Shown here: positions 2,372-18,166 of the stretch, piece by piece
Layout of the letters: the number at the start of each line of letters is the position of its first letter
Position numbering within the stretch: the stretch's first letter is position 1
Origin: Candidatus Velamenicoccus archaeovorus
Lineage (GTDB): Bacteria; Omnitrophota; Gorgyraeia; Velamenicoccales; Velamenicoccaceae
Assembly (NCBI RefSeq): GCF_004102945.1
Contig: NZ_CP019384.1
Location: 1,740,001 to 1,772,000 of the forward strand
Reading direction: 5' to 3'
DNA length: 32,000 nucleotides
Made by a program: the position numbers and the translations under genes
The notes under the pieces: model-generated
Databases searched by the model: none
The model's input: the letters and a program-made list of their open reading frames with translations, nothing else
Told to the model about the DNA's origin: nothing

Positions 2372-3187
2372 GATGTCCTTTTGATGGAAGATCCTTTCCT
2401 CGCCTTCGAGCTGTCCGTCAACTCAAGGACCTTCTCTACAGCTTCCTCAGCTGTCTTGACTTCAACGACGCCAGGGATAGACCAGGACCCCAGCCCGATG
2501 ACGGGTTTTTTCATCACTGACCTATATACAAACCATCAGAGATTTTGGAAGCGCGAATTTTGGCCGCATGCCTGCCTGTCCAAGAGAGCAGGCGAGCGCG
2601 ACGACGATGGCGTACCCTTTGTGGTACGTCGAGGAGAAACAACGCAGCAGGCGGTCAAAAGACGCCTTCCCCTCTGTTCTTAATCAGGGGGCCGGACGCT
2701 TTTGGGCTGCGACTTCGTCGCTCGTCCTTGACGTAGCGCTTCGGCTACGCCGGCGTCCTCTCCTCCTCGTCTCGCTCCAAAATCGTCACGGCCAAAACTC
2801 CGATGGTTTGTATATAGGTCAGTGGGCAAACGCGATCTCGGACAACGTCCCATACTTTCCCGGCAAGGCAATCACGGCATCCGCGCAACCCGCCACGATC
2901 GTGTTGCGGGTATAGCCTAATCCGGTAGGAATCGGTATGTCAATGAAGGGATTGGCGGCATTCTTGTCTTCTGAAGGCAAGATGCCTATGGTCAAGCCTC
3001 CTCCATTCTTTGCTCCTCTGGAAACAGCCTCCATAACCCCTTTTAAACCTCCAGTAACTATTATTGCCCCCACTTTTGCCAACAATTCACCTAATTTTAT
3101 TGAAATTCCCTCCACTTTGGCATCACATGCGTGACCGCCAACAACAGCAATAATCAACCTCTTATTCCCTGATTTATTTAAAGACAT
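2368..3187 (-). pseudogene. TIGR00725 / LOG-like (SLOG Rossmann) family gene split by a 310-bp insertion
   Basis: The N-terminal piece (track ORF 2819..3226; the likely ATG is at 3187) reads ...IIAVVGGHACD...IIVTGGLKGVMEAVSRGA...GILP...ALPGKYGTLSEIAFA and then runs H-stop into the insert. The 48-codon C-terminal piece (2514..2368) reads MKKPVIGLGSWSIPGVVEVKTAEEAVEKVLEL... Deleting 2515..2824 exactly restores one 169/182-codon ORF (..SEIAFA|MKKPVIGL..). Confidence 0.8.
2515..2824. mobile_element. foldback / MITE-like element, copy 1 (310 bp, non-autonomous)
   Basis: It has perfect 23-bp terminal inverted repeats: CACTGACCTATATACAAACCATC at 2515..2537, with the reverse complement at 2802..2824. 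The interior is self-complementary almost end to end. It is homologous to 16451..16739 and interrupts a coding gene. No flanking direct duplication is visible. Confidence 0.75.
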
Positions 3188-4475
3188 AAATAAGTTTCTC
3201 GAACTCTTTTTCTTTGGAGTTGGCAAAATAAACCGTGAACTTCAAGCTCGTCCCGGCATCATTCCCCATGAGGCGGACATACCCCTGATAAGCCTGCGAT
3301 ATATCAAACTCCTTTTCACCGTTAGCCGGGATATCCCTGAATTCCCACGGGAAAGAAAATATCTTTTTGTCGTTGATATAGATGTCCAAAGGAAGGATAT
3401 CGATCTGTTGAGGGGTCGGGTTGCGTATGACCAAAAAAAACCTGTTTTCGTCTGGATAGTTTCTTTGATAATAGATATCCTCGATGCGGAACAGAGGTTT
3501 CGCTCCCCAATCGAACGACATCTTGTCGCTCTCAATAAAGGTCGTGCAGGGAAAATTAACGCCGTCCCTGAGCTCATTGATGCCGAGCGTCAGCGCATTT
3601 TTTGTCGTCCCTGAATAGTCCCCCTGGGCGCCGAGATAAGCCAGACTGACTTTCTCGCCGATGGTCGTGATCTTGACGGCCGGCCGGGCCACATCCCACT
3701 GGGCAAAGACCTTATATGTCCCTGCCGGGACTCCCTCGATGCTGTAAGGAACTTTCTGCCCCTTGATTTCCGCGGCATCGATCTTGTCAAACATCATCTT
3801 GGACGCCGAGATATAGTTGCCGTCGCCCGTGTCCTCCAAAAGATAAACATAAAGATCGCCGGAGACCCCTTTGAGAGGCGGCAAGGTCACAACGCCCGAT
3901 ATCCGGCCTTCACCTTCTCTCTTGACAGGATTCCCCTCTCCAGGGGTCTCTTGTCGCGGCGGCTTTAAAGGATGCGGCTGGCGTTCGATAAATCTTTTTA
4001 AGAAAGCGCCCTGCCCGGATCCGGGCTCGAGCTCACCGCTCGCCCATCCCCCGGCGGCAGCCTCAGGGGTCGCGCTGCCTTCTTCCTCCGAGGCGACCAT
4101 GGCCATGATATGTTCCTTGCTTGCATCGCTGGAGACGGAAGAAAAAAGGGGCTCTTTTTCGACAACAGGCACAACAGTCCTGTCGGCTTCAAAAAGAGAC
4201 AAAGGAACATAACCCCTTTCCTGATCAAATTCTTCCTCGGACGTCATCCGGTTGATATCCTCCAAGAAGATCGTCGCACGCGTCGCCGCCTCCCCCTCGC
4301 CGGAACGCAGCACAATATATTTCGGCGTCTTTTCGACGATCTTGCCGCGCATCACCGTGCCGTTTTTCAAAATAACGACCTCCGCCCAAGCCGTGATCGA
4401 TGCGCCCAAAACAACGACCGCTGCCAGGAAAAAACCGATGATATTGAATTGAAACCGCGGTTTTTTTATAAGCAC
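3174..4475 (-). CDS. hypothetical exported / membrane-anchored protein
   Basis: 433 aa. A GTG start has a GGAGA RBS 7 nt upstream. There is an N-terminal hydrophobic segment (IIGFFLAAVVVLGASITAWA), an acidic low-complexity linker and a beta-rich C-terminal half. No family was recognised. Confidence 0.7.
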   Translation of the reverse strand: MLIKKPRFQFNIIGFFLAAVVVLGASITAWAEVVILKNGTVMRGKIVEKTPKYIVLRSGEGEAATRATIFLEDINRMTSEEEFDQERGYVPLSLFEADRTVVPVVEKEPLFSSVSSDASKEHIMAMVASEEEGSATPEAAAGGWASGELEPGSGQGAFLKRFIERQPHPLKPPRQETPGEGNPVKREGEGRISGVVTLPPLKGVSGDLYVYLLEDTGDGNYISASKMMFDKIDAAEIKGQKVPYSIEGVPAGTYKVFAQWDVARPAVKITTIGEKVSLAYLGAQGDYSGTTKNALTLGINELRDGVNFPCTTFIESDKMSFDWGAKPLFRIEDIYYQRNYPDENRFFLVIRNPTPQQIDILPLDIYINDKKIFSFPWEFRDIPANGEKEFDISQAYQGYVRLMGNDAGTSLKFTVYFANSKEKEFEKLIYVFK

Positions 4476-4501
4476 AACAAGGTCTCCTTCTGCGTCAAAT
4501 T

Positions 4502-4568
4502 TTAATTTATGCGCCTGGACAGAATCCCTGCCTGCCGGCAGGCAGGGAACTTGACACCACTAGCTCCG
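4502..4568 (-). pseudogene. duplicated 3' portion of tRNA-Arg(CCG) carrying a 22-nt palindrome at the T-loop position
   Basis: Coordinates 4502..4526 repeat 4855..4879 (TTAATTTATGCGCCTGGACAGAATC). Next comes the perfect palindrome CCCTGCCTGCCGGCAGGCAGGG (4526..4547). Then AACTTGACACCACTAGCTCCG follows, matching the tRNA sequence AACTGTCACCACTAGCTCCG. There is no 5' half. Confidence 0.6.
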
Positions 4569-4811
4569 CTCCTCGTCTCTGATAAGACGGAACCCCGAGC
4601 GATGTTAAAAAATCATCCTGAAGTCTTTATTATGCCCCCGGCAGGAATCGGTCTCGTTCGGCTGCGCCTCGCTCGCCACCGGGCCGCTCACCAACTCGCG
4701 GCCCCGCTAAACGGTCGGCCTTATCCGGCCGACCAGCGGCCTCCGGTTCGATTCCCGCTCTTCTTGCCAAAAACCGCAGCTTTCCGCATCCAAGCTACGC
4801 ACACATATCCA

Positions 4812-4852
4812 TGCCCTCGGCAGGAATCGAACCTGCAAGGCCAACTCCGAAA
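4812..4852 (-). pseudogene. orphan 3' half of a tRNA-Arg(TCG)-like gene
   Basis: The minus strand reads TTTCGGA-GTTGG-CCTT-GCAGG-TTCGATT-CCTGC-CGAGGGC-A. That is an anticodon loop with TCG, the 3' anticodon stem, the variable region, a perfect T-arm and the acceptor 3' strand. No matching 5' half (CCAAC, GCCCTCG) lies upstream. The terminal 18 nt recur at 4633..4650. Confidence 0.55.
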
Positions 4853-4862
4853 TATTAATTTA

Positions 4863-4934
4863 TGCGCCTGGACAGAATCGAACTGTCACCACTAGCTCCG
4901 GAGGCTAGTGCGCTATCCGTTGCGCTACAGGCGC
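4863..4934 (-). tRNA. tRNA-Arg (anticodon CCG)
   Basis: The minus strand reads GCGCCTG-TA-GCGC-AACGGATA-GCGC-A-CTAGC-CTCCGGA-GCTAG-TGGT-GACAG-TTCGATT-CTGTC-CAGGCGC-A. This folds as a full cloverleaf of 72 nt with no encoded CCA. Confidence 0.9.
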
Positions 4935-4945
4935 ATAAAACTCTT

Positions 4946-5030
4946 TGGTGCCCCCTGCCTGCCCTGCGGACTCGTCCGCGAAGGCAGGTATCTCTACCTG
5001 TCGGTAGACAGGCATTGGGCGACGGGGGCA
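4946..5030 (-). other. GC-rich structured element with a tRNA-like acceptor end, immediately 5' of tRNA-Arg
   Basis: The minus strand reads TGCCCCCGTCGCCCAATGCCTGTCTACCGACAGGTAGAGATACCTGCCTTCGCGGACGAGTCCGCAGGGCAGGCAGGGGGCACCA. The terminal helix is GCCCCC/GGGGGC followed by A-CCA, and there are internal hairpins (GCCTGTC/GACAGGT, GCGGAC/GTCCGC, CCTGCC/GGCAGG). It has no canonical D- or T-loop. It shares CCCTGCCTGCC with the 4526 palindrome. Confidence 0.3.
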
Positions 5031-5098
5031 TTTCAAACAAAAATGTCTAATTCCTAAATCCAAATGACGAAATGAAAAAACAATAAAAAAATCTTTTA

Positions 5099-5153
5099 GG
5101 CATTAGGGATTATCGACATTGATTCGGCATTGGACATTCGACATTTGATTATC
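5099..5153. repeat. degenerate 7-nt periodic array (GNCATT units)
   Basis: The sequence is GGCATTA GGGATTA TCGACATT GATTC GGCATT GGACATT CGACATT TGATTAT. It lies directly 3' of the endonuclease-Q-like stop codon. Confidence 0.5.
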
Positions 5154-5154
5154 C

Positions 5155-6393
5155 CTAAAATAGAGATATCTGCTCTTCGGATTTCCTGACCGGCCCCTCA
5201 TCCCCAAAGACGGAAACTTTGCCGTATTCTCCGTCATAACCGGGCTCCACCTTGACGCGTCCCGCCCGCACACGGCAGATGCCTTCGGCAACCCTGGGGT
5301 GCGCTCCGCGGTCAAGCTCTTCCTGGGGGACCTTCGTCAGGATATTGAATTCCGTACCGAACCGCTGGATCATGCCGCGATATTCCTTTTCAACAGCCAA
5401 AGACCCCTTGCCCATCTGCTTGGCGTCCGCAATAATTTCGTCGAGAGGGACGAGATTTTTGTAAGGGATCGCATTATCCGGGACAAAGCCCTCCTTGCGG
5501 TCCGCCAGCTGGACAATCCTGTTCATGACGCCGATCGTCAACGGCTTGCCGCATTTGGGGCACTTATTGGCATTTTTGCGCGACTCCTCGGGGGAAAAGC
5601 GGATCCCGCAAAGCCTGTGACCGTCATAATGGTATTTTCCCTCTTCAGGGAAGAACTCGATGGTATAAAGGAACTTTTTCTTATCTTTTGTGCGCAGGGC
5701 CTCGCGGATCTCCTGGTAATCCAGCTCGCAATTGAAAACATTGGCTTCGCGGCCGATCTTCTGCGGCGAATGCGAATCCGAGTTGGATACCAGGCTGAAT
5801 CTGTCGAGGGCGCTTAACCGCCAGTTCATCGCCGGATCCGAGCTTAAGCCCGTCTCCAGCGCAAATATTCTGGGTGTCTGCTTGCCGAAGCAATCCTCAA
5901 TCCTATCGAACCCGGACATGGAGCCAAAGAGGCTGAACCACGGCGTCCAGATGTGACCGGGGATGAGGATGCAGTTCTCGTCGGCCTCGAACACGATCCT
6001 CGCCAGATCCTCAGCATCCAATCCCAGGATCGGCCGGCCGTCGCTGGAAAGGTTGCCGACACCTGAAAGCACCCTGTTGATCGCATCCACGCTCTTGAAA
6101 GAAGGCGCCAGGATCACGTTGTGGATGCGGTACGTCCGCCCGCCTTTTGAATAGATGCTCGAGACCTCGGCGGACAGGACAAAATGCACCCCCTGGTGGA
6201 CCAAGAGCCCCTTGCCCGTCGGCTCCAGCTTCGTCTTGAGCTCTTCGAGCCACAAATGGTGCGTGAAGTCGCCCGTCCCCATCAGGGATATCCCCTTGAG
6301 CTTGGCCCACTGGGCGATATGCTCGACATCCATATCGCGGCTCGTGGCCCGGCTGTATTTGGAATGGACGTGGAAATCCGCTACGAATTCCAT
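5155..6393 (-). CDS. endonuclease Q-like PHP-domain protein with a Zn-ribbon
   Basis: 412 aa. It has an N-terminal PHP metal motif (DFHVHSKYSRATS), the motifs GHIWTPWFS and NSDSHSP, and a CPKCG zinc-ribbon followed by TIGVMNR. This matches the architecture of the endonuclease Q family, recognised by eye. Confidence 0.75.
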   Translation of the reverse strand: MEFVADFHVHSKYSRATSRDMDVEHIAQWAKLKGISLMGTGDFTHHLWLEELKTKLEPTGKGLLVHQGVHFVLSAEVSSIYSKGGRTYRIHNVILAPSFKSVDAINRVLSGVGNLSSDGRPILGLDAEDLARIVFEADENCILIPGHIWTPWFSLFGSMSGFDRIEDCFGKQTPRIFALETGLSSDPAMNWRLSALDRFSLVSNSDSHSPQKIGREANVFNCELDYQEIREALRTKDKKKFLYTIEFFPEEGKYHYDGHRLCGIRFSPEESRKNANKCPKCGKPLTIGVMNRIVQLADRKEGFVPDNAIPYKNLVPLDEIIADAKQMGKGSLAVEKEYRGMIQRFGTEFNILTKVPQEELDRGAHPRVAEGICRVRAGRVKVEPGYDGEYGKVSVFGDEGPVRKSEEQISLF

Positions 6394-6412
6394 CTTCCCT
6401 CACTTCGCTCGG

Positions 6413-6536
6413 CAGAGGACAGATGACAAAACACAGATGACAGAAAAGAATTATTACCCTCTATTCTCCGCATTCTCTCGTCCCTCATCCTCTGTTATCT
6501 GTTTTCTGTTCTGTTCTCCGTCTTCTGTTCTCTGTA
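6413..6536. repeat. two inverted arrays of a CAGNNNA heptamer (purine-rich arm and pyrimidine-rich arm)
   Basis: The left arm (6413..6447) is CAGAGGA CAGATGA CAAAACA CAGATGA CAGAAAA. The right arm (6489..6536) is TCCTCTG TTATCTG TTTTCTG TTCTG TTCTCCG TCTTCTG TTCTCTG, which are the reverse-complement units. The arrays sit in the 5' leader region of the endonuclease-Q-like gene. Confidence 0.6.
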
Positions 6537-6546
6537 AACCCATATT

Positions 6547-6588
6547 CCCCGGCCTCGGCCTGCCTTTCGGGCAAGGCCAGGGCCGGGG
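6547..6588 (-). terminator. GC-rich long hairpin downstream of the Mut7-C gene (possible terminator or RNA-stability element)
   Basis: The outer stem CCCCGGCC...GGCCGGGG encloses an inner stem GGCCT(T)GCC / GGCAGGCC with a CGAAA loop on the minus strand. No U-tract follows, so its function is uncertain. Confidence 0.35.
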
Positions 6589-6645
6589 CTTGTTTCGGGT
6601 ACCTCTAAGCGGCCACAACACTCTTGCGCCCTGAAGGGCGGAGCC

Positions 6646-7104
6646 TTAGGCCGCGCAGAGTAAACTTGTAATAATTTCTTCCACATTTTCCCAGTGCGTG
6701 CCTTTCCAGTATACCCTGCGGCAGGCGGGGCAGCGCCGGAAGACATCCACGGTCTCAAAGACATACGGCGGCACTTCTTTTTCGACGACAGCCTTGGGTA
6801 TCGCGGCCAAAGGCTCGTTGCAGAGAATGCAGCGGCTGAAAAAAAGACTGCGGTCAACGGCAAGACCCAGCTGGCCCTGAAGTTCCAGTATCTGGCCTTT
6901 CAGGTCGTTGGCGTGCAGGAAAACCACGCTGCCTCCGTGCCGCCGGCCGAAACGCATATTGCGCGTGACGACGACCCGTTCCTCCTTGAGCGCCTCCAGC
7001 ATGCAGAAGGCCTTGGAACCCGACGGCTCATAACGGGCGTCGAAGCCCAGGATCCGCAGCCATCGGCTCAGCCGGCCGAGTTCCCGCGTCAGGAGAAACT
7101 TCAT
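6646..7104 (-). CDS. Mut7-C RNase (PIN-like) domain protein with a C-terminal Zn-ribbon
   Basis: 152 aa. The N-terminus MKFLLTRELGRLSRWLRILGFDA is typical of the Mut7-C/DUF82 family. The C-terminus carries CILCN...CPACRRVYWKGTHW. The gene starts 2 nt after the pyrC stop. Confidence 0.8.
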   Translation of the reverse strand: MKFLLTRELGRLSRWLRILGFDARYEPSGSKAFCMLEALKEERVVVTRNMRFGRRHGGSVVFLHANDLKGQILELQGQLGLAVDRSLFFSRCILCNEPLAAIPKAVVEKEVPPYVFETVDVFRRCPACRRVYWKGTHWENVEEIITSLLCAA

Positions 7105-7106
7105 GT

Positions 7107-8402
7107 TCAGCCCTTATGAGAAATATTCTTCGATGTATACGCGATCTTTCCCGCGCAGATGGTGCACTCCACGGCCCCTTTAAGCCTACGGCCGAGAAAG
7201 GACGAATTATTGGATTTGGACGCAAAGGCCGCCTTGGTCACGACCCATTCCCTGGCGGGATCGATAATGACGATATCGGCGCATCTGCCCGCCTCAAGCC
7301 TTCCCTTATCGATGCCCAGGATCTTCGCCGGCGCCGACGACAACAGGCGTGCCAGCTCCATCCAGGTCATTTGGTCCGATGCGATAAATTCCGACACCAG
7401 GCTCGCGCATTCCGTCTCCAGCCCCGTGACTCCGAATTCCGCATGGTCGAACTCGATATCCTTTTCACTCTCCGTGTGCGGCGCATGGTCGGAAGCGACG
7501 GCGTCGATCACGCCGTCTCTGACGGCTTGACGCAGCGCATCTCTGTCGGCCTTCGTCCGCAGAGGCGGATTCATTTTAAAATTGGGGTCGTATGTCTCCA
7601 GAGCCTCGTCCGTAAAGATCAGATAGTGCGGGGCCGTCTCGGCGGTGACAGGTTCCCCTCGTTTTTTGGCCGCGGCGATAAGATCGACACTCTCCCGGCA
7701 GCTGACGTGCGCGATATGGACCGGGCATCCGGCCCCTGCTGCCAGACGGAGGTCGCGCTCCACACGGCGGTACTCCGCTTCTTTCGGGATACCTCTGAGG
7801 CCGAGCTCCGTAGACATGAGCCCGAGGCTCATGACGCCCTTCTGGGAGAGACGCTTGTCTTCACAGTGACAGATCACCAGAAGCCCGCACTTTTTAGCCA
7901 GGCGAAAGGCCTCTTCCATCAGGCCATCATCGTCGACGGAGGAACCGTCGTCGGTCACAGCCACGGCCCCTTCGGCCTTGAGGGCTGCAAAATCCGTCAA
8001 TTCCGTGCCGGCCCGGCCTTTGGTGATGGCCGCCGCCGCAAACACATGGCTTGAGGCCGTCTTGCGCACGATCTCCTGGAGCATGCGCAGGCGCTCCGGC
8101 GAATCCATGGCCGGCGTCGTGTTTGGCATCGCCAAAACACTCGTCACGCCGCCCTTGACGGCCGCTTTCGTTCCGGTCGCCACCGTCTCTTTGTCCTCAC
8201 GGCCGGGCTCCCGCAAATGAACATGCATATCCACAAGCCCGGGAAGAACGATCTTGCCCGACGCGTCGATGACCTTCTGCGTCCCTTCCGGAATGCCCTT
8301 GCCGATCTCGGCAATAACACCGTCTTTAACCAGAATATCCGCCGCTCCGTCGACTACTGTCGCCGCGCCGATCAAGTGTCCGTTTTTAATAAGGATATCC
8401 AT
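7107..8402 (-). CDS. pyrC: dihydroorotase
   Basis: 431 aa. Amidohydrolase motifs are present: DMHVHLREPG, AMPNTTP, HCED and ASDHAPH. Confidence 0.93.
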   Translation of the reverse strand: MDILIKNGHLIGAATVVDGAADILVKDGVIAEIGKGIPEGTQKVIDASGKIVLPGLVDMHVHLREPGREDKETVATGTKAAVKGGVTSVLAMPNTTPAMDSPERLRMLQEIVRKTASSHVFAAAAITKGRAGTELTDFAALKAEGAVAVTDDGSSVDDDGLMEEAFRLAKKCGLLVICHCEDKRLSQKGVMSLGLMSTELGLRGIPKEAEYRRVERDLRLAAGAGCPVHIAHVSCRESVDLIAAAKKRGEPVTAETAPHYLIFTDEALETYDPNFKMNPPLRTKADRDALRQAVRDGVIDAVASDHAPHTESEKDIEFDHAEFGVTGLETECASLVSEFIASDQMTWMELARLLSSAPAKILGIDKGRLEAGRCADIVIIDPAREWVVTKAAFASKSNNSSFLGRRLKGAVECTICAGKIAYTSKNISHKG

Positions 8403-8413
8403 CTCACCCTAAA

Positions 8414-8450
8414 TAATGAGACTTTAAGGCCAGACCTTAAAGTCTCATTA
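8414..8450. repeat. REP-like 37-bp perfect palindrome, copy 1
   Basis: The sequence is TAATGAGACTTTAAGG-CCAGA-CCTTAAAGTCTCATTA (16-bp stem, 5-nt loop). Its last three bases are the pyrB stop codon (TAA on the minus strand). Confidence 0.85.
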
Positions 8451-9557
8451 ACTTGTTTGGCCGCTTACCGGCTCACCCGTTAACCCGCTCACCCGCTTAG
8501 TGTAATCTCTGACACTCTGACTCTCCGATACTCCGACACTCGGCCCGCCCGCCGATGATCCATCCGGAGGAACGTGGACTTCCGTCTTTGCGGGCCTTGC
8601 TCGCCTCGCCTTGCGGCTTTCATTGGCCTGGGACACCAGAAAAAGAACGGCCATGCGCACCGCAATGCCATTGGTGACCTGCTCTAAAATGACGGAGTTC
8701 GCTCCATCCGCCACTTCGCTCGACATCTCGATCCCCCTGTTGATGGGACCGGGGTGCATGACGATGATGTTCTTCTTGGCCTTCTTGAGCCGTTCCTCCG
8801 TAATGCCGAAATTCTTGAAATACTCCAGCTGCTGCGGAAAGGCGTCGCCCGAATCGCGCTCGAACTGCATGCGCAGAACATTGACGGCATCGGCTTCGGC
8901 GAGCGCCTCCTGAATGTCATGCGTCACCGAAACCCCCATCTCTCCGATGCACGGCGGGATCAGCATGGGCGGCGCACAGACGGTCACGCGGGCCCCCAGT
9001 TTCGTCAACCCCCAGATGTTGGAACGGGCCACGCGCGAATGGGCGATATCCCCGACGATAGCGACACGGACCCCCTCGATGTGTCCCAGTTTTTCCTTCA
9101 AGGTAAAGATGTCCAGGAGGGCCTGGGTCGGATGCTCGTGCCATCCGTCGCCGGCATTGACGACACTCGCCCCCACATGACGCGCCAGCATGACGGCCGC
9201 CCCGGAATAGGAGTGGCGCATGACGATCATATCGACTTTCAGGGCCTCGATGTTGCGGCCGGTATCGATCAGGGTTTCACCCTTGCGCACGCTCGACGTC
9301 TCCGTCGCGATGTTGATAACGTCCGCCGAAAGCCTCTTGGCGGCGATCTCAAACGAGATACGCGTACGGGTGGAAGGCTCGTAGAAAAGGTTCACAATGG
9401 TCTTGCCGCGCAGCGCCGGCACCTTCTTGATCGGGCGGCCGATGACCTCTTTGAAAGATTCCGCGGTCGAAAGGATAAGCGTTATCTCGCCGGCCGAGAG
9501 CTCTTTCAAACCCAGCAGGTCCTTGCGTTCCCAGGAAGGATTCCGTGTCATATTCAT
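8448..9557 (-). CDS. pyrB: aspartate carbamoyltransferase catalytic subunit with an unusual C-terminal extension of about 45-60 aa
   Basis: 369 aa. It carries STRTR, the HP.Q region, HPGP and the [10 protein letters not shown] end of a normal PyrB. A low-complexity tail follows (...[41 protein letters not shown]...). Confidence 0.92.
8461..8540. repeat. 8-nt periodic degenerate array (10 units)
   Basis: The units are CCGCTTAC CGGCTCAC CCGTTAAC CCGCTCAC CCGCTTAG TGTAATCT CTGACACT CTGACTCT CCGATACT CCGACACT. The array lies inside the pyrB C-terminal extension. A period of 8 is incompatible with a codon repeat. Confidence 0.6.
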
Positions 9558-10108
9558 GCGTCTTTCTCCAGGACTACGACCTCGTCGCGGCCTTCGGATT
9601 CCTCCAGCCGCACCTCGACGGTTTCCTTCGGCGAGGTCGGGATGTTCTTACCGACGTAATCTGCGCGGATAGGCAGCTCCCTGTGTCCCCGGTCGACCAA
9701 AACCGCCAACTGGATGAACTGCGGCCGGCCAAAATCAATGATCTCGTCTAAGGCCGCCCGCACGGTGCGGCCGGTATACAGCACGTCGTCAACAAGGACC
9801 ACTTTCTTGTCTGAAATATCGAAATCGATCTCGGTTTTATGGACGACCGGCTGTTGGGCGATAGAACTCAGATCGTCCCTATAAAGCGTGATATCGAGGA
9901 GCCCGACAGGCGGCGTCACGCCGTCCACCTTGCCGATCAAGGCCGCCAGCCTCTGCGCCAAAAACGCCCCGCGCGTGCAGATGCCGACGATGGCGATGTC
10001 TTGCGTCCCCTTGTTTTTTTCCACGATCTCATGCGCCATACGCAAAAGAACGCGGTTCAAACCGGCCTTGTCCATGATCCTGGCTCTTTCTTTCATGGCA
10101 TAATCCAT
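9554..10108 (-). CDS. pyrR: bifunctional pyrimidine operon regulator / uracil phosphoribosyltransferase
   Basis: 184 aa. It has a PRTase fold with [13 protein letters not shown] and N-terminal [12 protein letters not shown]. Its stop overlaps the pyrB start (ATGA). The true start may be the internal MKERARIM, 4 codons downstream. Confidence 0.92.
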
Positions 10109-10146
10109 TTTCCCGATATAATCCTCGACATAATCATGGATTATGC

Positions 10147-10620
10147 CTGATTACACCGATTAAAAACTGATATCACAGATTAAAAAATAAACCGCTTGAT
10201 TTGACAGCTCTTATTATTAAAATTAACCTCTAACCCGACAGGCAACCGAGAAACTTTCAAATAAGACAATATTTGATGTCCAAATACATCCGGAATATTG
10301 CCGGTGACGGCTTTTACTTCAAGAACGACTTTATTCTCTACAACTAAATCCAGCCTTAAAGAACCCACCTTTTTATCTTTAAATTTAACCTGGTAATCTT
10401 TTTCCACTGCGTATTGCAGACCTTTTTCTTCAAATGCCAACTTTAGAGCGTTGGAATATACTCTCTCATTAAAGCCGGGGCCCAATTCCGAATGAACCCT
10501 GAAACAACATCCGATAATTTTTTCAGTTAGAGAATCATCAATTCCCGCCATAAGCCCTTAACTGTTACGCCTCTAGCTTTAATCCGTGTAATCAGAATTA
10601 ATAATCTGCGTAATCGTTCT
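10147..10620. mobile_element. AT-rich gene cassette bounded by inverted paired repeats (possible small selfish element)
   Basis: Four copies of a roughly 16-nt motif, GATTAC(A/G)CNGATTA, are present. Two lie at the left end (10149..10164, 10169..10184). Two lie in inverted orientation at the right end (10578..10593, 10604..10619). The outer 18-mers CTGATTACACCGATTAAA and TTTAATCCGTGTAATCAG are reverse complements with one mismatch. The interior is visibly AT-richer than the flanks. Confidence 0.4.
10180..10551 (-). CDS. GxxExxY family protein (PD-(D/E)XK nuclease-like)
   Basis: 123 aa. The sequence IIGCCFRVHSELGPGFNERVYSNAL contains the family-defining G-x-x-E-x-x-Y motif. It is followed by DLVVENKVVLEVKA (D...E.K nuclease core). 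Confidence 0.8.
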   Translation of the reverse strand: MAGIDDSLTEKIIGCCFRVHSELGPGFNERVYSNALKLAFEEKGLQYAVEKDYQVKFKDKKVGSLRLDLVVENKVVLEVKAVTGNIPDVFGHQILSYLKVSRLPVGLEVNFNNKSCQIKRFIF

Positions 10621-10622
10621 TC

Positions 10623-10653
10623 AAAAAAACACCCGCGTCTTTGGGGCGCGGGT
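10623..10653 (-). terminator. rho-independent terminator of the glycosyltransferase/rsmI/glmS transcription unit
   Basis: The minus strand reads ACCCGCG-CCCCAAAGA-CGCGGGT followed by GTTTTTTT. Confidence 0.8.
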
Positions 10654-10791
10654 TCTCAAATTATCCTGAATATAATGCGTCATGATTCATCTCATCCTTG
10701 CCGGTTTCTCTGAACCGGCTTAAAGGCATTTCAAAAAATATAACACGCTTTAGCCGCACTGTCAAGACGATTTTCCCGCCCCCCCCTCGTC

Positions 10792-12372
10792 TTATCTGGG
10801 CATATCTTTATCTCTGCAATAGATGACCAGGGGGCTGGCGGCCATAGATCCCTGAGGCGCCCTGACAAACCCCCTTGAAGCCAAAAGATGCCTGTCCAAA
10901 GGAAGGGTGCATTCAAACAAAAGGACTTGCGGGGAAAATATTCTCAAAAAATCTTTTAAGTTATTTGAAGACAATGTGTTATGGCTCGGAAGAACAACAA
11001 TAGACCTCTCCAGGCCGATGTTGCCGACAACATACTCCGTGGTTGCGATGAGATCGTCCTTTTTCGTATGGGAAAGGACCCATTCTTTGGCCGCTTTCAG
11101 GCTTGTCTCTTTGGCATGGGCCCTGTCCTCCTGCCAGTAAACATCCAGGACGCGGACAGCCTGGTACATATTGGCAAGCAGGATGACCGCAAACACAATA
11201 TGAAAGAAAACCTTTCCGGTCCTGGGCAGGAACTTCACGCAGAAATCTCTCAAGCCCATTCCTCCGAGGATCAATAGACACGCCGCAGGCAAAAGAAGAA
11301 AACGCGTCCAGCTGAATTCTCCAATCATCATGTAGGGATAAAATCCGACGCTCGCCGCCATCTGCGCGATGGCCAGAAATAGCAGCAGCTTTTCTGCGCG
11401 GCTGCCCCGGCGCAGAATGCCGAACGCCGCCCAAAGAGCAGGAACCACAAGAACCCGCAAGATGCAAAACAGAACATAAAACATCTGCGCCGTGTTGACT
11501 CCCGCAAGGGAGGCAAAACAGCCGCCCCGCAAAAGAGGCAGGAGCGCCGGCGTCCTGTCCAGGAATATGCCGCCCGTCAGGCGCGTGGCCCAAAAATAAT
11601 TTTTGAACGCCAAGGGGTATTGAGGAAAGAAAGAGCCGTAACGCCGCCAGATAAACCCTTCCCACAACAAAAGGAGCACGGTATAGACGCCGGCAAAAAA
11701 GGCGGCATGCCTCCAGGGCCTGGCCTCGCCGGGCCGCGCCATGACCATGGCCAGGGCAAAGACGTAGGGATAAAAAACGGCGGCGGAGCGGACCAAAAAA
11801 CCAAAAAACAAGAGACCCGCCAGCCCTGTTAGAAACAACCTGTCCCACTTTTCCCTTGAAACAAACATCAGGATAGCCGAGAGGGTGACCAAGAGACTCC
11901 ACGGCTCCGTAAGAATCCTCAGCAGGGTGATCTGGGTGCAAACGCTCCCGACGAGAATAACGGATGCCCAAAAAGCCACGCCGCGGTCCCGGTATATGCG
12001 CATGGCGATCGCAGCGACAAGCAGGCCGTTGACGGCCGCCGGCACAAACCCGCCCAGAACCAGGCCCTTGAGCGAAAACCCCAGGGACAATGCCCCTGCC
12101 AGCAAAACAGACAACCCCGCATGGACAAAAGGCAGGGCCGGCGCGGCGATGCCTTTCCAAAATTGATAAACATTAAATGTGCAGAGGAATCCTTCGCCTG
12201 ACTGAAGGTGACGCGCGATATCAAGATAGAGGAAGGTATCCGAAGAATTGTTATAGACAGACGTGTCGAGGACAAAGGCCGTCAGAAAAGACGGCAAAAG
12301 GACGGCGGCCAGGCAGAGGAACAATACGAAGTAAAACGGCAGGTCCTTTTTAGAATGCGCGCGTAAGCTCAT
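10792..12372 (-). CDS. polytopic membrane protein, GT-C fold glycosyltransferase-like (ArnT/PMT-type)
   Basis: 526 aa with more than 10 hydrophobic helices over the first roughly 400 aa and a soluble C-terminal domain. The topology resembles GT39/GT83 enzymes; the family was assigned by eye only. Its start overlaps the rsmI stop by 1 nt. Confidence 0.6.
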   Translation of the reverse strand: MSLRAHSKKDLPFYFVLFLCLAAVLLPSFLTAFVLDTSVYNNSSDTFLYLDIARHLQSGEGFLCTFNVYQFWKGIAAPALPFVHAGLSVLLAGALSLGFSLKGLVLGGFVPAAVNGLLVAAIAMRIYRDRGVAFWASVILVGSVCTQITLLRILTEPWSLLVTLSAILMFVSREKWDRLFLTGLAGLLFFGFLVRSAAVFYPYVFALAMVMARPGEARPWRHAAFFAGVYTVLLLLWEGFIWRRYGSFFPQYPLAFKNYFWATRLTGGIFLDRTPALLPLLRGGCFASLAGVNTAQMFYVLFCILRVLVVPALWAAFGILRRGSRAEKLLLFLAIAQMAASVGFYPYMMIGEFSWTRFLLLPAACLLILGGMGLRDFCVKFLPRTGKVFFHIVFAVILLANMYQAVRVLDVYWQEDRAHAKETSLKAAKEWVLSHTKKDDLIATTEYVVGNIGLERSIVVLPSHNTLSSNNLKDFLRIFSPQVLLFECTLPLDRHLLASRGFVRAPQGSMAASPLVIYCRDKDMPR

Positions 12373-13028
12373 CAGAACACGACCACAAATTCACCTTTTG
12401 GCCTCGACCGCCGACGCAGCTGGTCCGCAACGCAACCGGCATCGCCGCGCAGCACCTCTTCAAATTTCTTCGTGATCTCGCGGACAACGGCAATGGGCCT
12501 CTCCCCAAGGACCTCGCGCATATCTTCGAGCGCAGACAGGATGCGGTGCGGAGATTCATAAGCAACGACGGTTGCCTTGAGGACTGCCAATTCCTTGAGC
12601 CGCTTCTTGCGGGCGGCGGATTTGACGGGCAAGAAACCCTCAAAGAAGAAGCGGTTGGCTGGAAATCCGCTGGCGGAAAGGGCGCTAATCAGGGCCGTCG
12701 GCCCCGGGATGGGTGTTACAGGGATGTTTGCGTCCAGGGCGGAGCGGATAAGGTTGAATCCTGGATCGCTGATGCCGGGCGTGCCGGCATCAGAGACAAG
12801 GGCGACCGCCTTGCCCTCCCGCAGCAACCCCATGAGATGCTCGCCGCGGACGATCTTGTTATATTCATAATAGCTGCATAAGGGTTTCTTGATGCCGTAG
12901 GCTTCGCAAAGGATCTTCGTGCGACGGGTATCTTCGCAGGCGATCAGGTCGACGGACTTTAACACCTCGACGGCGCGGTAAGTGATGTCGCCCAAATTGC
13001 CTATAGGTGTCGAAACAATATACAACAT
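12372..13028 (-). CDS. rsmI: 16S rRNA (cytidine1402-2'-O)-methyltransferase
   Basis: 218 aa. The N-terminus MLYIVSTPIGNLGDITYRAVEVLKSVDLIACEDTRRT is canonical for RsmI. Confidence 0.92.
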   Translation of the reverse strand: MLYIVSTPIGNLGDITYRAVEVLKSVDLIACEDTRRTKILCEAYGIKKPLCSYYEYNKIVRGEHLMGLLREGKAVALVSDAGTPGISDPGFNLIRSALDANIPVTPIPGPTALISALSASGFPANRFFFEGFLPVKSAARKKRLKELAVLKATVVAYESPHRILSALEDMREVLGERPIAVVREITKKFEEVLRGDAGCVADQLRRRSRPKGEFVVVF

Positions 13029-13034
13029 AAGGCA

Positions 13035-13111
13035 GTTAACGTGTTGACGTGTTAACGAGTTGACGGGTTAAAGATTTATGCGCTCGCTTATTCATACGCT
13101 CGTTTACTTAT
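13035..13111. repeat. 8-nt periodic degenerate array between glmS and rsmI
   Basis: The units are GTTAACGT GTTGACGT GTTAACGA GTTGACGG GTTAAAGA, then TTTATGCG CTCGCTTA TTCATACG CTCGTTTA CTTATTTA. The first half is related to the reverse complement of the array at 8461..8500. Confidence 0.6.
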
Positions 13112-14914
13112 TTATTCAACGGTGACCGACTTGGCTAAATTCCGCGGCTGGTCGACGTTGCACCCGCGGAAGACCGCGATATCATAGGCAAGGATCTGCA
13201 GAGGCAGGGCCACGAGAAGAGGCGAAAGGAATTCGTCCGTCTTAGGCGTATAGATCACTTCTGGCGTATGCAGGCGGATATGATGATCGCCTTTTGTGGC
13301 GATCGCAATGATCCTGCCGGAACGCGCCCTGATCTCCTGGATATTGGAAATCATCTTGTCGTAGATCTTCGATTGCACCGCGATACAGACGACGGCCCGG
13401 TATTCGTCGATCAACGCGATGGGACCGTGTTTCATCTCTCCGGCCGCATACCCTTCCGCCGGAATATAGGAGATCTCCTTGAGTTTCAACGCCCCTTCAA
13501 GGGCTGAAGGATAGTTGATGTTGCGGCCCAGGAAAAGGAAGCTGCCGAAATGGTGGTGACGAGAGGCGACTCTCTGGATCTGACTGCGGGAACGCAAGAC
13601 CTCTTCCTGCAGCGCCGGGATGCGGAGCAAAGACTTCCACGCCTGCCGGTAAGACGTCTCCGTCATCTTCTTGCGCCGCAAAGCCAATTCCAGCCCCAGC
13701 ATGTAAAAAACGCCCAACTGCGCGGTGTAGGCTTTGGTCGAAGCCACGCCGATCTCCGGCCCTGCCAGCGTATAAAAAATCTGGTCGGACTCCCGCGTGA
13801 GGCTTGAGCCGACGACGTTACAGATGGAAACGATCCTGGCGCCGTTTTTTTTGGCCTCCCGCACAGCGGCCAGGGTATCAGCCGTTTCCCCCGACTGGCT
13901 GACGGCAATGACAAGTGTCCGTCTGTCCACGAGCGGATGACGATAACGGAATTCCGAAGACAGATCCACCCAGACCGGAAGCCGTGCCAATGATTCGATG
14001 ACATACTTTCCTACCAGCCCGGCGTGGTAGGCGGTGCCGCAAGCGACGACAACGATCTGCTTGATATCGCGGGGGCACATCAACGACTTGATCTCGCGGC
14101 GGCCGCTGGAAAAAAGCTTTCTTAAAACCTGCGGCTGCTCATAGATCTCCTTGAGCATGAAATGCGGATATCCCCCCTTGCGGGCGCTCTCGGCGTCCAT
14201 CGTGATCTTGTCGAATTTGACAGGGATCTTCTTGCCGTTGGACCCCAGGACAGTCAAGGTGCGGCCGCAAAGCACGGCCACCTGCTTGTCCTTGAGGTAA
14301 ACAACGCGGCGGCAATGTTCCAGGATTGCCGGTACGTCTGAAGCGATAAACAGGCCTTCTGGCCCGTCGGCGGCAATGAGCGGGCTGTCCTGGCGCGCGC
14401 AGACAACCTTGCCGGGCTCTAAACTTGAGACGACGCCCAGAGCGAAGCTGCCCTCGACATCCTGCAAGGCGCGGATCACGGCCTTCTCGAGGTTGCCACG
14501 GTAATATTTCTCAATCAGATGGGCGAGGACTTCAGTGTCCGTCTGGGAAACAAAACGATGCCCCTGCCGCAGAAGGGCCTCTTTCAATTTCAGGTAATTC
14601 TCGATGATGCCGTTGTGGACAACCATGAACTTTTTGTCGCAACTGGCATGAGGGTGGGCATTGATGTCATTGGGGGCGCCGTGCGTGGCCCAGCGCGTGT
14701 GGGCGATGCCGACGGTCGCTTCCGGCAGGGGTCTTGTGCCGATCAACTGGACCAGGTCATGGATCTTGCCCTTTGTCTTGCGCTGGAAGACCTCTGCGCC
14801 CGAGACAACGGCGATCCCGGCCGAATCATATCCTCTGTATTCCAGCCGTTTAAGGCCGGAGAGGAGGAACGGAACAGCTTGTTTTTTCCCGACGTATCCG
14901 ACTATGCCGCACAT
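13112..14914 (-). CDS. glmS: glutamine--fructose-6-phosphate aminotransferase
   Basis: 600 aa. It has MCGIVGY with an N-terminal nucleophile Cys, two SIS domains and a C-terminal ...PRNLAKSVTVE. Confidence 0.96.
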   Translation of the reverse strand: MCGIVGYVGKKQAVPFLLSGLKRLEYRGYDSAGIAVVSGAEVFQRKTKGKIHDLVQLIGTRPLPEATVGIAHTRWATHGAPNDINAHPHASCDKKFMVVHNGIIENYLKLKEALLRQGHRFVSQTDTEVLAHLIEKYYRGNLEKAVIRALQDVEGSFALGVVSSLEPGKVVCARQDSPLIAADGPEGLFIASDVPAILEHCRRVVYLKDKQVAVLCGRTLTVLGSNGKKIPVKFDKITMDAESARKGGYPHFMLKEIYEQPQVLRKLFSSGRREIKSLMCPRDIKQIVVVACGTAYHAGLVGKYVIESLARLPVWVDLSSEFRYRHPLVDRRTLVIAVSQSGETADTLAAVREAKKNGARIVSICNVVGSSLTRESDQIFYTLAGPEIGVASTKAYTAQLGVFYMLGLELALRRKKMTETSYRQAWKSLLRIPALQEEVLRSRSQIQRVASRHHHFGSFLFLGRNINYPSALEGALKLKEISYIPAEGYAAGEMKHGPIALIDEYRAVVCIAVQSKIYDKMISNIQEIRARSGRIIAIATKGDHHIRLHTPEVIYTPKTDEFLSPLLVALPLQILAYDIAVFRGCNVDQPRNLAKSVTVE

Positions 14915-14968
14915 TAGTTTTGCCCCTATGAATAGGTGTTATTCCTTACAAAACTAACCCCGAGTGTA

Positions 14969-15002
14969 CCACAGAAATTTCGAACCGTCGAAATTTCTGT
15001 GG
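14969..15002 (-). promoter_or_regulatory. perfect 15-bp stem / 4-nt loop hairpin in the glmS 5' leader
   Basis: The sequence is CCACAGAAATTTCGA-ACCG-TCGAAATTTCTGTGG. It lies 55 nt upstream of the glmS ATG inside a 260-nt AT-rich spacer. No U-tract follows. Confidence 0.5.
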
Positions 15003-15174
15003 TGTTCACACAAGAGGTAAATAATCACGGTGCCGTAGAAACAAAGAGTCGCAGAGTGAAAAACCTTCAGAAATCTAACCGTTACTTTAATAATGAGGCT
15101 ATTCAGGACAGACCTATTTTGTCTCCCTAAGCCGTTTCCACCAACCCGTTTACTCTGACTCTTCAATACTGTCT

Positions 15175-15723
15175 TTATTTAAAAACCTCTATCCTCTCCC
15201 GCGGGGCGCCGCAGAGAGGACACTTGCCCGGGGGTTCTCCCTCGTGGGTATACCCGCAAACCTTGCACACATAAAGGGACGGATAATCCATGTCCTTTTT
15301 GGCTTCCACGGCTTCTTTGGCCTTCTGAAAAAGCTTGGCATGTTCCTTTTCCGTCTCCAAGGCCCACAAAAAAGAACGCTCGGCGTTCTTCTCGCCCTGG
15401 AATTCCGCCGTGTTTTTATAAGTCGGGTACATCTCGTTGATCTCGAAATTCTCGCCTTCCAACGCATTCGCCAGATTTTCCTTGGTGTGGCCGATGCCGA
15501 AACCGGCCATGGCGTTGACCAAAAAAGCCCCGGTCAGATCTTTGTGGACGGAAAAATGGCTGGTCGCGTGGATCTGTTCGGCGAAGGAAACGGCATGGAA
15601 AAGCTTGCCGATCTTTGGAAAACCTTCTTTTTGGGCCACGTCTCCCCAGATCTTATAGCGCATGTGTGCCTGCGATTCTCCGCCGAATGCCGAACGTAAA
15701 TTTGCCGCTGTCATGTCATGCAT
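15175..15723 (-). CDS. rbr: rubrerythrin
   Basis: 182 aa. It has a diiron four-helix bundle (E..H motifs) plus a C-terminal rubredoxin-like CKVCG...CPLCG. Confidence 0.9.
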   Translation of the reverse strand: MHDMTAANLRSAFGGESQAHMRYKIWGDVAQKEGFPKIGKLFHAVSFAEQIHATSHFSVHKDLTGAFLVNAMAGFGIGHTKENLANALEGENFEINEMYPTYKNTAEFQGEKNAERSFLWALETEKEHAKLFQKAKEAVEAKKDMDYPSLYVCKVCGYTHEGEPPGKCPLCGAPRERIEVFK

Positions 15724-15776
15724 ATTCCACCCCCCGATATCTCAAAACCAAAAAACACCACATCCTCAACAGTGCG

Positions 15777-16304
15777 TTAAAGAAGGCAACCTTCCTGCGA
15801 ATTGATGCATTTGATGCGCAGAAGCTCGCCGAATTTTTTCAAGTGTTCCCTTTCTTCGGAGAGAATTTTTGCAAAAGCCCCTTTGGCCTTGGGGTCCGAC
15901 GTCCGGGACAAACATGCTTCATAGAAAACAACGGAACGCCTCTCCATGTTCAGGGCCTCTTCCAGGGCCGTATGACGATGGTCCATCCGTGAAGCCTCCT
16001 GCAGCTCCTGAGAGGTATCAAATACCTTTGAAGAAACATACTGGACGATGTCATCCTCTTCAAAGGCATCGTCGGCGCCGCTCTTGACGGCATCCAGGTA
16101 TTTTTGGAACGTCTTCAAATGTTCTCTCTCTTCCTGAATAAGGAAGCTGATCTCGTGCCTGGCCTCCTGGTCTTTCACTTTTTTGGCCAAGTCTTCATAA
16201 AAACGTATCCCATCCTCTTCCATGCGCACAGCCACTTTGAAAGCCTGGACAGGACTGAAATCAAAGATAACGATCATTCCGTTTTTGTCGATATCTACAC
16301 GCAT
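15777..16304 (-). CDS. ferritin-like / rubrerythrin-family diiron protein (no rubredoxin domain)
   Basis: It carries two E-x-x-H-containing helices (QEEREHL, SEEREHL). The track starts at the GTG at 16316, but the ATG at 16304 has a GGAGGGG RBS 4 nt upstream and is preferred. Confidence 0.75.
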   Translation of the reverse strand: MRVDIDKNGMIVIFDFSPVQAFKVAVRMEEDGIRFYEDLAKKVKDQEARHEISFLIQEEREHLKTFQKYLDAVKSGADDAFEEDDIVQYVSSKVFDTSQELQEASRMDHRHTALEEALNMERRSVVFYEACLSRTSDPKAKGAFAKILSEEREHLKKFGELLRIKCINSQEGCLL

Positions 16305-16450
16305 GATCCCCTCCACTCTCTCTCAGAATGGTTCCGAAGAAATTAACCGCGTTTATAGAAAGCAAAGGCCCCGTTAAAACATGGATACGAGATCCTTGTC
16401 TCTAACGGGGCGCATCGCTCTGGGACAGTTTAGGCTCGTGTCCGGGAGTA

Positions 16451-16739
16451 GTCCAAGCCTATCTATGGTCTTCGGAGATTTTGGAAGAGCGGATTTTAGC
16501 CGCATGCAAGGCGCGACGACGATGGCGTACCCGCTGTGGTACGTCGAGGAGGAGCAACGCAGCAGGCGGTCAAAAGACGCCTTCCCCTTAGTTAGAAACC
16601 AAGGGGCCGGCCGCTTTTGGGCTGCGACTGCGTCGTTCGTCCTTGGCGTAGCGCTTTGGCTACGCCAGCGTCCTCTCTCCTTGTCTCGCTCCAAAATCGT
16701 CACGGCCAAAACTCCGATGAACCATAGATAGGCTTGGAC
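16451..16739. mobile_element. foldback / MITE-like element, copy 2 (289 bp, intergenic)
   Basis: It has perfect 19-bp terminal inverted repeats: GTCCAAGCCTATCTATGGT at 16451..16469, with the reverse complement at 16721..16739. The core of about 250 bp is homologous to 2538..2801 and in the same orientation. It lacks the roughly 20-nt mini-hairpin of copy 1. Confidence 0.75.
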
Positions 16740-17822: not shown

Positions 17823-17859
17823 TAATGAGACTTTAAGGTCTGGCCTTAAAGTCTCATTA
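17823..17859. repeat. REP-like 37-bp perfect palindrome, copy 2 (inverted relative to copy 1)
   Basis: The sequence is TAATGAGACTTTAAGG-TCTGG-CCTTAAAGTCTCATTA. The loop is the reverse complement of the copy 1 loop. Confidence 0.85.
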
Positions 17860-18014
17860 TCTCCCTTTCGGCGCTGGACGGGACACAAGAACTGGCAACA
17901 ATTAACAAAAAGGCTTTTGCCGTCTTTAAGTATAGCCCACCAGAAAAAGCTTTTCAATAAGATTCCTTCTGGTTTGCGGCGCTCCAGGACAACAAAACAC
18001 TCCTTATACGGGCA

Positions 18015-18082: not shown

Positions 18083-18131
18083 TTAACCCAGAAATGGTAG
18101 ACCTTCCTCCTTCCACATAAAGGAAGGGTCT
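18083..18131 (-). repeat. conserved ~49-nt intergenic motif, copy A
   Basis: The sequence TTAACCCAGAAATGGTAGACCTTCCTCCTTCCACATAAAGGAAGGGTCT is about 80 percent identical to 19140..19187. It contains a polypyrimidine/polypurine hairpin (CCTTCC...GGAAGG). Confidence 0.55.
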
Positions 18132-18166
18132 AATGAGACTTTAAGGCCAGACCTGTTTGTCTCATT
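18131..18166. repeat. REP-like palindrome, copy 3 (right arm degenerate)
   Basis: The sequence is TAATGAGACTTTAAGG-CCAGA-CCTGTTTGTCTCATT. It overlaps the TGA stop (18162..18164) of the 272-aa gene. Confidence 0.7.

Follow-up and report, generated by a model that had tools for sequence, protein, structure and literature searches.

Two folded repeats of Candidatus Velamenicoccus archaeovorus belong to an undescribed, phylum-wide family of transposase-less mobile elements in Omnitrophota

The stretch of DNA analyzed here (the window, 32,000 nt) comes from Candidatus Velamenicoccus archaeovorus, a source that was recognized via a translated search with an accidentally open reading frame of the element under study. 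The genes in this neighborhood include a pyrimidine operon (pyrR, pyrB, pyrC, and carA), glmS, rubrerythrins, and a giant repetitive open reading frame (ORF), and among them lie two copies of a folded repeat, one inside a gene of the SLOG-cluster4/TIGR00725 type and the other in a spacer upstream of a rubrerythrin-like gene. Both repeats are members of an undescribed, phylum-wide, transposase-less family of mobile elements in Omnitrophota. We consider it likely that this family comprises multi-copy non-autonomous DNA transposons (miniature inverted-repeat transposable elements, MITEs) spread through the phylum, in which a shell of terminal inverted repeats (TIRs) surrounds a two-domain folded core. 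Nothing is unusual about the transposon shell; what stands out is the shared co-varying core, the niche at operon junctions, and the conservation of copies in place.

Two copies of the element in the window

The two copies lie in the same orientation, at the coordinates given by an earlier reading of the DNA (the original prediction). They are 89% identical over 312 aligned columns and are organized as follows, with P1 denoting the terminal stem:

2515..2824, plus strand: copy 1 of the element, 310 bp, inside the minus-strand SLOG-cluster4/TIGR00725 gene
2515..2546, plus strand: copy 1, 5' arm of P1, partner 2793-2824, inverted repeat (alignment columns 8-39 with 317-348)
2547..2671, plus strand: copy 1, left domain; the helix GGAAG.C/G.CTTCC closes an internal stem and the hairpin 2610-2629; helices 2-6, changed on both sides
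2691..2792, plus strand: copy 1, right domain; near-invariant helix 2700-2713 with 2769-2782 (TTTTGGGCTGCGAC / GTCTCGCTCCAAAA), hairpin 2732-2749; helices 7-10
2793..2824, plus strand: copy 1, 3' arm of P1, carrying an in-frame TGA (2819-2821, minus strand) at which the upstream half of the split gene terminates
16451..16739, plus strand: copy 2 of the element, 289 bp, in the spacer upstream of the rubrerythrin-like gene (15777-16316, minus strand)
16451..16482, plus strand: copy 2, 5' arm of P1, partner 16707-16739, inverted repeat
16483..16586, plus strand: copy 2, left domain, with hairpin 16525-16544
16606..16706, plus strand: copy 2, right domain, with near-invariant helix 16615-16628 paired with 16683-16696 and hairpin 16647-16664
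16707..16739, plus strand: copy 2, 3' arm of P1, inverted repeat

Every block that the original prediction quoted as conserved is present in both copies, and the conserved blocks, including the two longest, occur exactly twice each in the window, against 0 occurrences expected from shuffling. A search with a profile of the family found no third copy in the window and scored the two known ones at 224 and 195 bits on the plus strand, compared to 76 and 57 bits on the minus strand, which makes their orientation clear. The description of perfectly paired arms that differ between the copies was likewise borne out: the arms of copy 1 are 31 nt long and 94% complementary (23 nt perfect), and those of copy 2 are 19 nt long and 100% complementary. 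Differences on one arm are mirrored on the other, and the side hairpins keep their stems and change their loops, both as first described. Folded singly, copies 1 and 2 reach -159 and -163 kcal/mol, corresponding to z = -11.2 and -11.7 relative to shuffled sequences.

In agreement with the original prediction, no transposase was found among the 20 window ORFs scanned against Pfam. Neither copy contains promoter-like or terminator-like sites. Copy 1 carries a private insertion of 21 nt (CTGCCTGTCCAAGAGAGCAGG, 2572-2592) that forms a small hairpin of its own within the left domain and is absent in copy 2 and in the orthologous copies of loci L001 and L131.

A family with fixed ends and a co-varying fold

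Exact 22-mer scans returned no genome match, no viral match, and one metagenome match (L001), which is the orthologous locus of copy 1. A protein search with the open-frame translation added five gene-called copies, which can be found in a protein database because one frame of the element is partly open. The possibility that the element codes for a protein was rejected: six-frame translation gives accidental frames only, broken by stops and by frameshifts between copies. The collection scan used a gapped 25-nt motif derived from distant copies, TTTTGGGCTGCGAC-N50-62-CGCTCCAAAAT, and in genomes it identified at least 117 loci, nearly all of them, among the matches listed, in metagenome-assembled genomes (MAGs) of Omnitrophota. 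There are at least 13 copies in JAZDPL01, at least 8 in CAZVUE01, and 5 to 8 in several other MAGs. The analyzed set comprises 106 non-identical copies, with the structure tests carried out on the 82 that are full length. Elements measure 270-310 bp, with arms of about 30 bp in every copy and a non-palindromic core.

A few matches carry labels from outside Omnitrophota, at least one of which probably belongs to a mis-binned duplicate. The locus L106 (JBAZLD010000060.1), binned as 'Candidatus Babeliales', and the Omnitrophota locus L057 (JAQUOM010000122.1) match at 100% identity over 200 nt of flank on either side of the element. The 'Candidatus Babeliales' label is probably a binning error, and the labels Saccharibacteria, Planctomycetia, and Elusimicrobia among the matches may be errors too.

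Shortened forms also occur. Derivatives of about 160 nt, which retain the arms and the right domain and have lost exactly the left domain, are present on several contigs of one MAG; these short derivatives have multiplied. Partial copies consisting of the left half or the middle only lie near full copies (L072 5602-5765, L063 284-400, and L112 36-212) and account for three of the six profile matches not picked by the search motif, so that decaying fragments exist beside intact elements.

The family has no counterpart in the resources searched. Rfam 15, including its group I and II introns, HEARO and omega RNAs, and ribozymes, yielded only tRNAs, both in the window and in 16 loci that represent every subfamily, and an E-value search over copy 1 gave a chance match to a small nucleolar RNA (E = 1.9); the Rfam comparison proposed in the original prediction thus leaves the element without a matching family. 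The searchable literature holds no description of the family and no paper linking Omnitrophota with MITEs or with such an RNA motif. The Velamenicoccus intron RNA treated in a 2026 paper is a 23S group I intron and not this element.

The original prediction took as its premise that the element has no family-specific terminal sequence. This fails across more than 100 copies, in which the termini are fixed by subfamily: TA-CTGAG...CTCAG-TA (the type in the window), GGGGTTG...CAACCCC, AGTGCCCCC..., and GTGTTGCC.... All subfamilies have the same arm length and an inner AATAA...TTGG box. The related claim that pairing rather than sequence is conserved holds over much of the arms and for the internal hairpins.

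The absence of a target-site duplication, also part of the original prediction, seems correct for the two copies in the window, which are flanked by CA...TG and TA...AG, and is incorrect for the family. Within the G-run subfamily, the largest, the flanking 3-mers are identical in 21 of 52 copies, as opposed to a mean of 7.7 and a maximum of 15 in shuffles. The pairs are TTA/TTA in 11 cases and TAA/TAA in 9, with no mixed TTA/TAA pair, and this concordance points to a direct duplication of 3 bp and not to an extension of the inverted repeat. Among the CTGAG-type copies, 19 of 30 have TA on both sides. Two diverged empty sites (rplB-rpsS and L099) fit TA/TAA targets, imprecisely. The original prediction would have taken fixed TIRs with ordinary target-site duplications as the mark of a plain MITE. 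Fixed subfamily termini and a TTA/TAA duplication are what the collection contains, and by that measure the element is a MITE-type transposon.

The picture of a foldback in which the left half pairs with the right half from end to end had to be replaced. This rod is seen in single-sequence folds only, and over the 82 full-length copies a Y-shaped fold is supported. The RNAalifold consensus consists of P1, the left domain (GGAAG.C/G.CTTCC), and the right domain (TTTTGGGCTGCGAC/GTCTCGCTCCAAAA), with one inner hairpin in each domain. Standard pairs form in 94.4% of cells, and 63 of the 82 consensus pairs are changed on both sides (1450 cells). Its covariation score is 0.546, compared to 0.18 in shuffles and about 0.09 (roughly sixfold lower) when partners are slid by 1-3 columns. 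None of 500 shuffles reaches the observed score, so that the covariation on which the original prediction depended is statistically supported. The rod, taken from the minimum-energy fold of copy 2, is 76.3% paired with a covariation score of 0.277, and its helices other than the shared P1 reach 70-80% pairing, with only one side varying at many pairs.

Compensatory changes that preserve the fold, as in structured MITEs such as bcr1 and ERIC, are also evident at finer scale. One six-base segment of the G-run subfamily, bounded by two conserved boxes, was seen in 24 versions among 35 copies, and in 28 of the 35 it is perfectly complementary to its partner. Between the copy in the window and the orthologous copies in L001 and L131 there are five arm differences, including two fully compensated pairs; by simple arithmetic, the chance of both right-arm changes facing changed left-arm positions is about 0.009. 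The unpaired core stretches AAGGCGCGACGA and GAGGAGCAACG are strongly conserved and common to subfamilies with different ends.

With regard to strand, the folding energies of the plus and minus strands differ by only -1.8 kcal/mol. An apparent G-U excess of 271 to 115 stems largely from the choice of pairs by RNAalifold. Mismatches within the arms are of the G-T type in 103 cases and of the A-C type in 63, and arms are perfect in only 8 of the 106 copies. Taken together, the strand and pairing results agree no less well with replication-templated correction of imperfect inverted repeats than with selection acting on the RNA of each copy. Two further explanations for the arms were tried, of which one found no support and the other was rejected. 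Maintenance of P1 by host selection for translational coupling found no support in arm mismatches (2.08 at tight operon junctions versus 2.36 elsewhere, p = 0.71), and Shine-Dalgarno-like motifs lie within the arm in only 7 of 27 cases. As guides to a target, the arms fare no better: the best match of the variable hexamer to the flanks is 4.63 versus 4.55 in shuffled pairings, and the whole-arm score of 14.3 versus 13.7 is inflated by a slicing artifact at one contig end.

Operon junctions, resident copies, and a split gene

Most copies lie between genes and not inside them, and they are placed tightly. Relative to co-directional flanking genes, 42 of 54 copies have one orientation and 12 the other (p = 5e-5). 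The upstream stop codon is at or inside the end of the element in 35 of the 54, and the downstream start is no more than 25 nt away in 27. In L002, a copy at 3001-3273 exactly fills the gap between the rplN stop and the rplX start. Such positions inside operons suggest that the elements may be co-transcribed.

Copies were observed within the S10/spc ribosomal-protein operon at two loci, L002 (rplN/rplX) and L077 (rplB/rpsS). A 2026 preprint (10.64898/2026.06.07.730766) reports that, of the Omnitrophota chromosomes with 'hypervariable' coverage windows, 67% have ribosomal-protein operon content inside those windows, and leaves the mechanism open. Multi-copy elements in ribosomal-protein operons could contribute to this coverage signal.

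Resident copies can change slowly. Between lineages, copy 1 is 92% identical, as against 62% at the fourfold degenerate sites of carA. Copy 2 and its orthologue in L057/L106 are 97.9% identical, with identical arms, as against 43.5% at fourfold sites of the adjacent gene, and identity forms a sharp peak over the element relative to its surroundings. Orthologues resemble each other more closely than do paralogues from a single genome. The closely related pair L017 and L080 displays no extra conservation, with 94.4% identity in the element and 94-96.5% in the flanks. A further candidate pair, L042/L092, was dropped because its flanks do not align (~40% identity). Recent allele exchange could mimic the identity peaks over resident copies.

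Copy 1 interrupts a conserved gene, the two parts of which are:

2825..3226, minus strand: N-terminal part of the interrupted SLOG-cluster4/TIGR00725 gene, matching Pfam PF18306 at model positions 2-113 of 151
2368..2514, minus strand: C-terminal part of this gene, 48 codons, with its ATG (2514-2512) immediately next to the element

The ORF of the upstream half (2819-3226) includes the element-borne stop codon, and when the C-terminal part is joined to the N-terminal part, the Pfam match continues to position 138. Close relatives have an intact 171-aa SLOG protein reading ...EIAFALNMKKPV.... Filled, empty, and remnant alleles segregate at this site. In L124, which carries the intact allele, the site reads GCC-CTGAAC-ATG. 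In the filled alleles, those of the window, L001, and L131-133, the element (CACTGACC...GGTCAGTR) stands between GCC and ATG, and the remnant allele (L125-130) retains only a 16-nt piece of the arm, TCCATATAGGTCAGTA, with the gene still split. The flanks of filled L131 and intact L124 are 99.75-100% identical, and two of their four differences fall within 22 nt of the junction.

The split gene was seen as two ORFs (135 and 48 codons) in lineages with the element or the 16-nt remnant (the window and L125-L133). Third codon positions account for most differences in the C-terminal fragment, also when one split allele is compared with another, and on this pattern the SLOG gene appears to work in two pieces. 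The sequences suggest that the protein either functions as two pieces or is re-initiated at the abutting ATG.

Several other features of the window were observed. A separate near-perfect palindrome of 38 nt, TAATGAGACTTTAAGG-CCAGA-CCTTAAAGTCTCATTA, flanked by TA, is present at 8413-8450, 17823-17860, and 18131-18166; the first of these exactly fills the junction between the pyrB stop and the pyrC start, and the last lies between two minus-strand ORFs. Its first nine bases match the CTGAG-type arm end at seven of nine positions, and it was not found in the other loci. The palindrome may be an arms-only mini-derivative of the element or a distinct REP-like family. The giant ORF (4204 codons, 19355-31969, minus strand) contains many internal repeats of roughly 300 and 600 nt, distinguished as families D1-D3, D5-D9, D11-D14, D16-D18, and D20; we take it to be probably one of the giant surface proteins described for Ca. 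Velamenicoccus archaeovorus. GC content falls to 0.41 around 10001-11000, where an ORF of the PD-(D/E)XK nuclease family is located (10180-10551), and AT skew rises to as much as +0.30 over 11001-12000, within a 526-codon ORF with no Pfam match.

Movement of the element and the role of its core

The preferred reading of these elements as MITEs draws on the features by which such transposons are recognized: they are short, have no transposase gene, possess TIRs, fold into a stable stem-loop, duplicate their target, are dispersed in many copies, and occur at sites with filled and empty alleles. A 3-bp TWA duplication in one subfamily and TA in another further resemble those of Tourist-like MITEs (PIF/Harbinger) and of the IS5 family (IS1031, IS427, and ISL2 groups). 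Harbinger/IS5 relatives have been reported to make 0-, 2- (TA), or 3-bp duplications (PMC12730594), and IS5-family transposases have been reported in Omnitrophota (preprint 10.64898/2026.06.07.730766). Movement would be of the cut-and-paste type, carried out by a trans-acting DDE transposase related in kind to IS5 / PIF-Harbinger enzymes. This enzyme would recognize two boxes, the short terminal one and the inner AATAA...TTGG, and the stretch between them would be free to change provided that the arms still match. Arm matching and hairpin covariation would probably be kept by selection on the folded single strand plus quasipalindrome template switching during replication. In addition, the core may act at the transcript level in host operons, as suggested by the conserved unpaired core, the 42:12 orientation bias, and the slow evolution of resident copies.

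Several observations weigh against this reading. The copies in the window lack a clean duplication. The native CTGAAC at the site of copy 1 contains neither TA nor TWA, and its 6 nt are gone from the filled allele, a loss not expected from simple cut-and-paste. One and the same insertion, of a single arm lineage, is shared by the clade of the window and that of L001, which are only 81-84% identical, and the intact allele segregates in one of them; either allele exchange by recombination or site-specific insertion or preference is required. Neither a transposase nor a larger element with the same ends was found, whether in the window or in some 850 kb of sequence near other copies. Compared with the Tourist-like and IS5 groups, the family differs in that no cognate transposase or full-length insertion sequence with matching ends was found in these loci, and in the lack of TA or TWA at the insertion site of copy 1. 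Wobble asymmetry is weak (159 versus 110, counting only pairs that the folds of both strands predict), and the two strands fold equally well, which leaves a role as RNA hypothetical. The quality of arm pairing is independent of genomic context. Finally, part of the near-invariance seen in the right-domain helix is ascertainment bias introduced by the search motif.

Among described families, bcr1 of the Bacillus cereus group, ERIC, and Correia elements are the closest in kind, being short, multi-copy, and strain-variable, with TIRs, duplications, and long stem-loops, and having no transposase. For bcr1, compensatory base-pair changes that keep a cruciform-like RNA structure have been reported (Delihas 2011, PMC3184786). 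The Omnitrophota family differs from all three in its larger size and its confinement to Omnitrophota and a few neighboring MAG labels. It differs also in its three-part Y fold, in a core common to subfamilies with differing termini and duplications (TA or TWA), and in its flush placement in operon junctions with a bias in orientation. No sequence similarity to any described family was found.

Two alternatives bear on the core and on its covariation. According to the first, the core is primarily a functional structured RNA, acting in cis in operons or forming a family of small RNA genes, that the host keeps at resident loci, with the TIR shell explaining only its arrival. We regard this as possible and rather doubtful. 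Multi-helix covariation together with the strongly conserved unpaired AAGGCGCGACGA and GAGGAGCAACG argues for it, as do the single core shared by subfamilies with different ends, the orientation bias, and the conservation of copies 1 and 2 relative to fourfold sites, with orthologues closer than paralogues. A core that serves as a host-kept functional module would explain both its presence between different ends and the persistence of a 97.9% identical copy beside a gene saturated at silent sites. However, no promoter-like or terminator-like sites were found inside the elements, the two strands are equivalent in folding and only weakly asymmetric in wobble pairs, the L017/L080 pair has no extra conservation, fragments and deletion derivatives exist, and the identity peaks are equally possible through recent allele exchange. 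The structured RNA gene that spreads, one of the explanations offered in the original prediction, is affected accordingly: the signature of mobility is that of a DNA transposon, and the RNA reading is retained, tentatively, for the core. It is also less than probable that the two-domain core represents a new class of functional structured nucleic acid, most likely RNA in operon transcripts, riding a transposon shell.

According to the second alternative, which we also think somewhat unlikely, the element is a plain selfish MITE whose covariation comes from template switching (quasipalindrome correction) that copies a change on one arm onto the other, with no selection on structure. Template-switch correction of quasipalindromes is an established process (the Ripley model; the E. 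coli thyA hotspot). It would accord with pairs that are about 90% Watson-Crick and nearly strand-symmetric, with pairing that does not depend on genomic context, and with a hexamer that is hypervariable and still complementary between conserved boxes. The clean loss of a whole hairpin domain and the arm remnant likewise point to hairpins at the DNA level. Three features are nonetheless unexplained by a neutral repeat: the deep conservation of the unpaired core across subfamilies, the orientation bias, and resident copies evolving several-fold more slowly than fourfold sites. The scarcity of perfect arms is also difficult to reconcile with template switching.

Mobilization as single-stranded DNA (ssDNA) by an HUH/Y1 enzyme, as an IS200/IS605-type PATE or a REPIN with its RAYT, was suggested in the original prediction and is now very improbable. 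Structure prevails over sequence across much of the arms, no transposase is nearby, and the window copies have no clean duplication, all of which would suit such an element. However, the inverted repeats run to the very ends, and one subfamily duplicates TTA/TAA directly, and these two properties disfavor the route; no guide-type relation of arm to flank and no Rfam HEARO or IS605-type match was found. IS200/IS605 elements have subterminal hairpins, no TIRs, and no duplication, and insert 3' of a fixed tetra- or pentanucleotide. REPINs and REP sequences (RAYT) share with the Omnitrophota family hairpin repeats with compensatory stem changes, intergenic location, and many copies, but REPINs are at most ~100 bp long and make no duplication, and REP units carry a 5' GTAG, whereas the Omnitrophota family duplicates its target and has longer arms and a large non-palindromic core. 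Integron attC sites are similar in that a folded structure is recognized rather than a sequence and in their position between a stop codon and the next gene. They differ in motif order, which by eye is GGGGTTG...CAACCCC here and not RYYYAAC...GTTRRRY, and in that the Omnitrophota family has no cassette arrays or nearby integrase and is about twice the maximum attC length.

The least credible reading, for which we see almost no room, is an intron-like intervening sequence removed from transcripts: with precisely 2515-2824 taken out, the SLOG protein is again in frame and its Pfam match uninterrupted, and both gene halves are under purifying selection, but two codons (CTGAAC, Leu-Asn) are missing relative to intact alleles, so that removal would not restore the native protein, the 16-nt DNA remnant keeps the gene split, most copies are intergenic, and Rfam contains no group I or group II match.

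Omnitrophota are uncultured bacteria of ultra-small size, many of them dependent on a host. Their genomes are compact, and to our knowledge the repeat content of these is essentially undescribed. In these genomes, the family places a folded insert of 270-310 nt exactly between the stop and start of essential operons, including ribosomal protein and pyrimidine operons, and at least one element sits inside a gene that appears to keep working as two pieces. In practical terms, such repeats will break assemblies and give false 'hypervariable' coverage signals in Omnitrophota genomes. If the core does act as RNA, a structured RNA new to science would extend across the phylum; otherwise, the family would offer a clean natural case in which to separate structural selection from replication-templated correction of inverted repeats.

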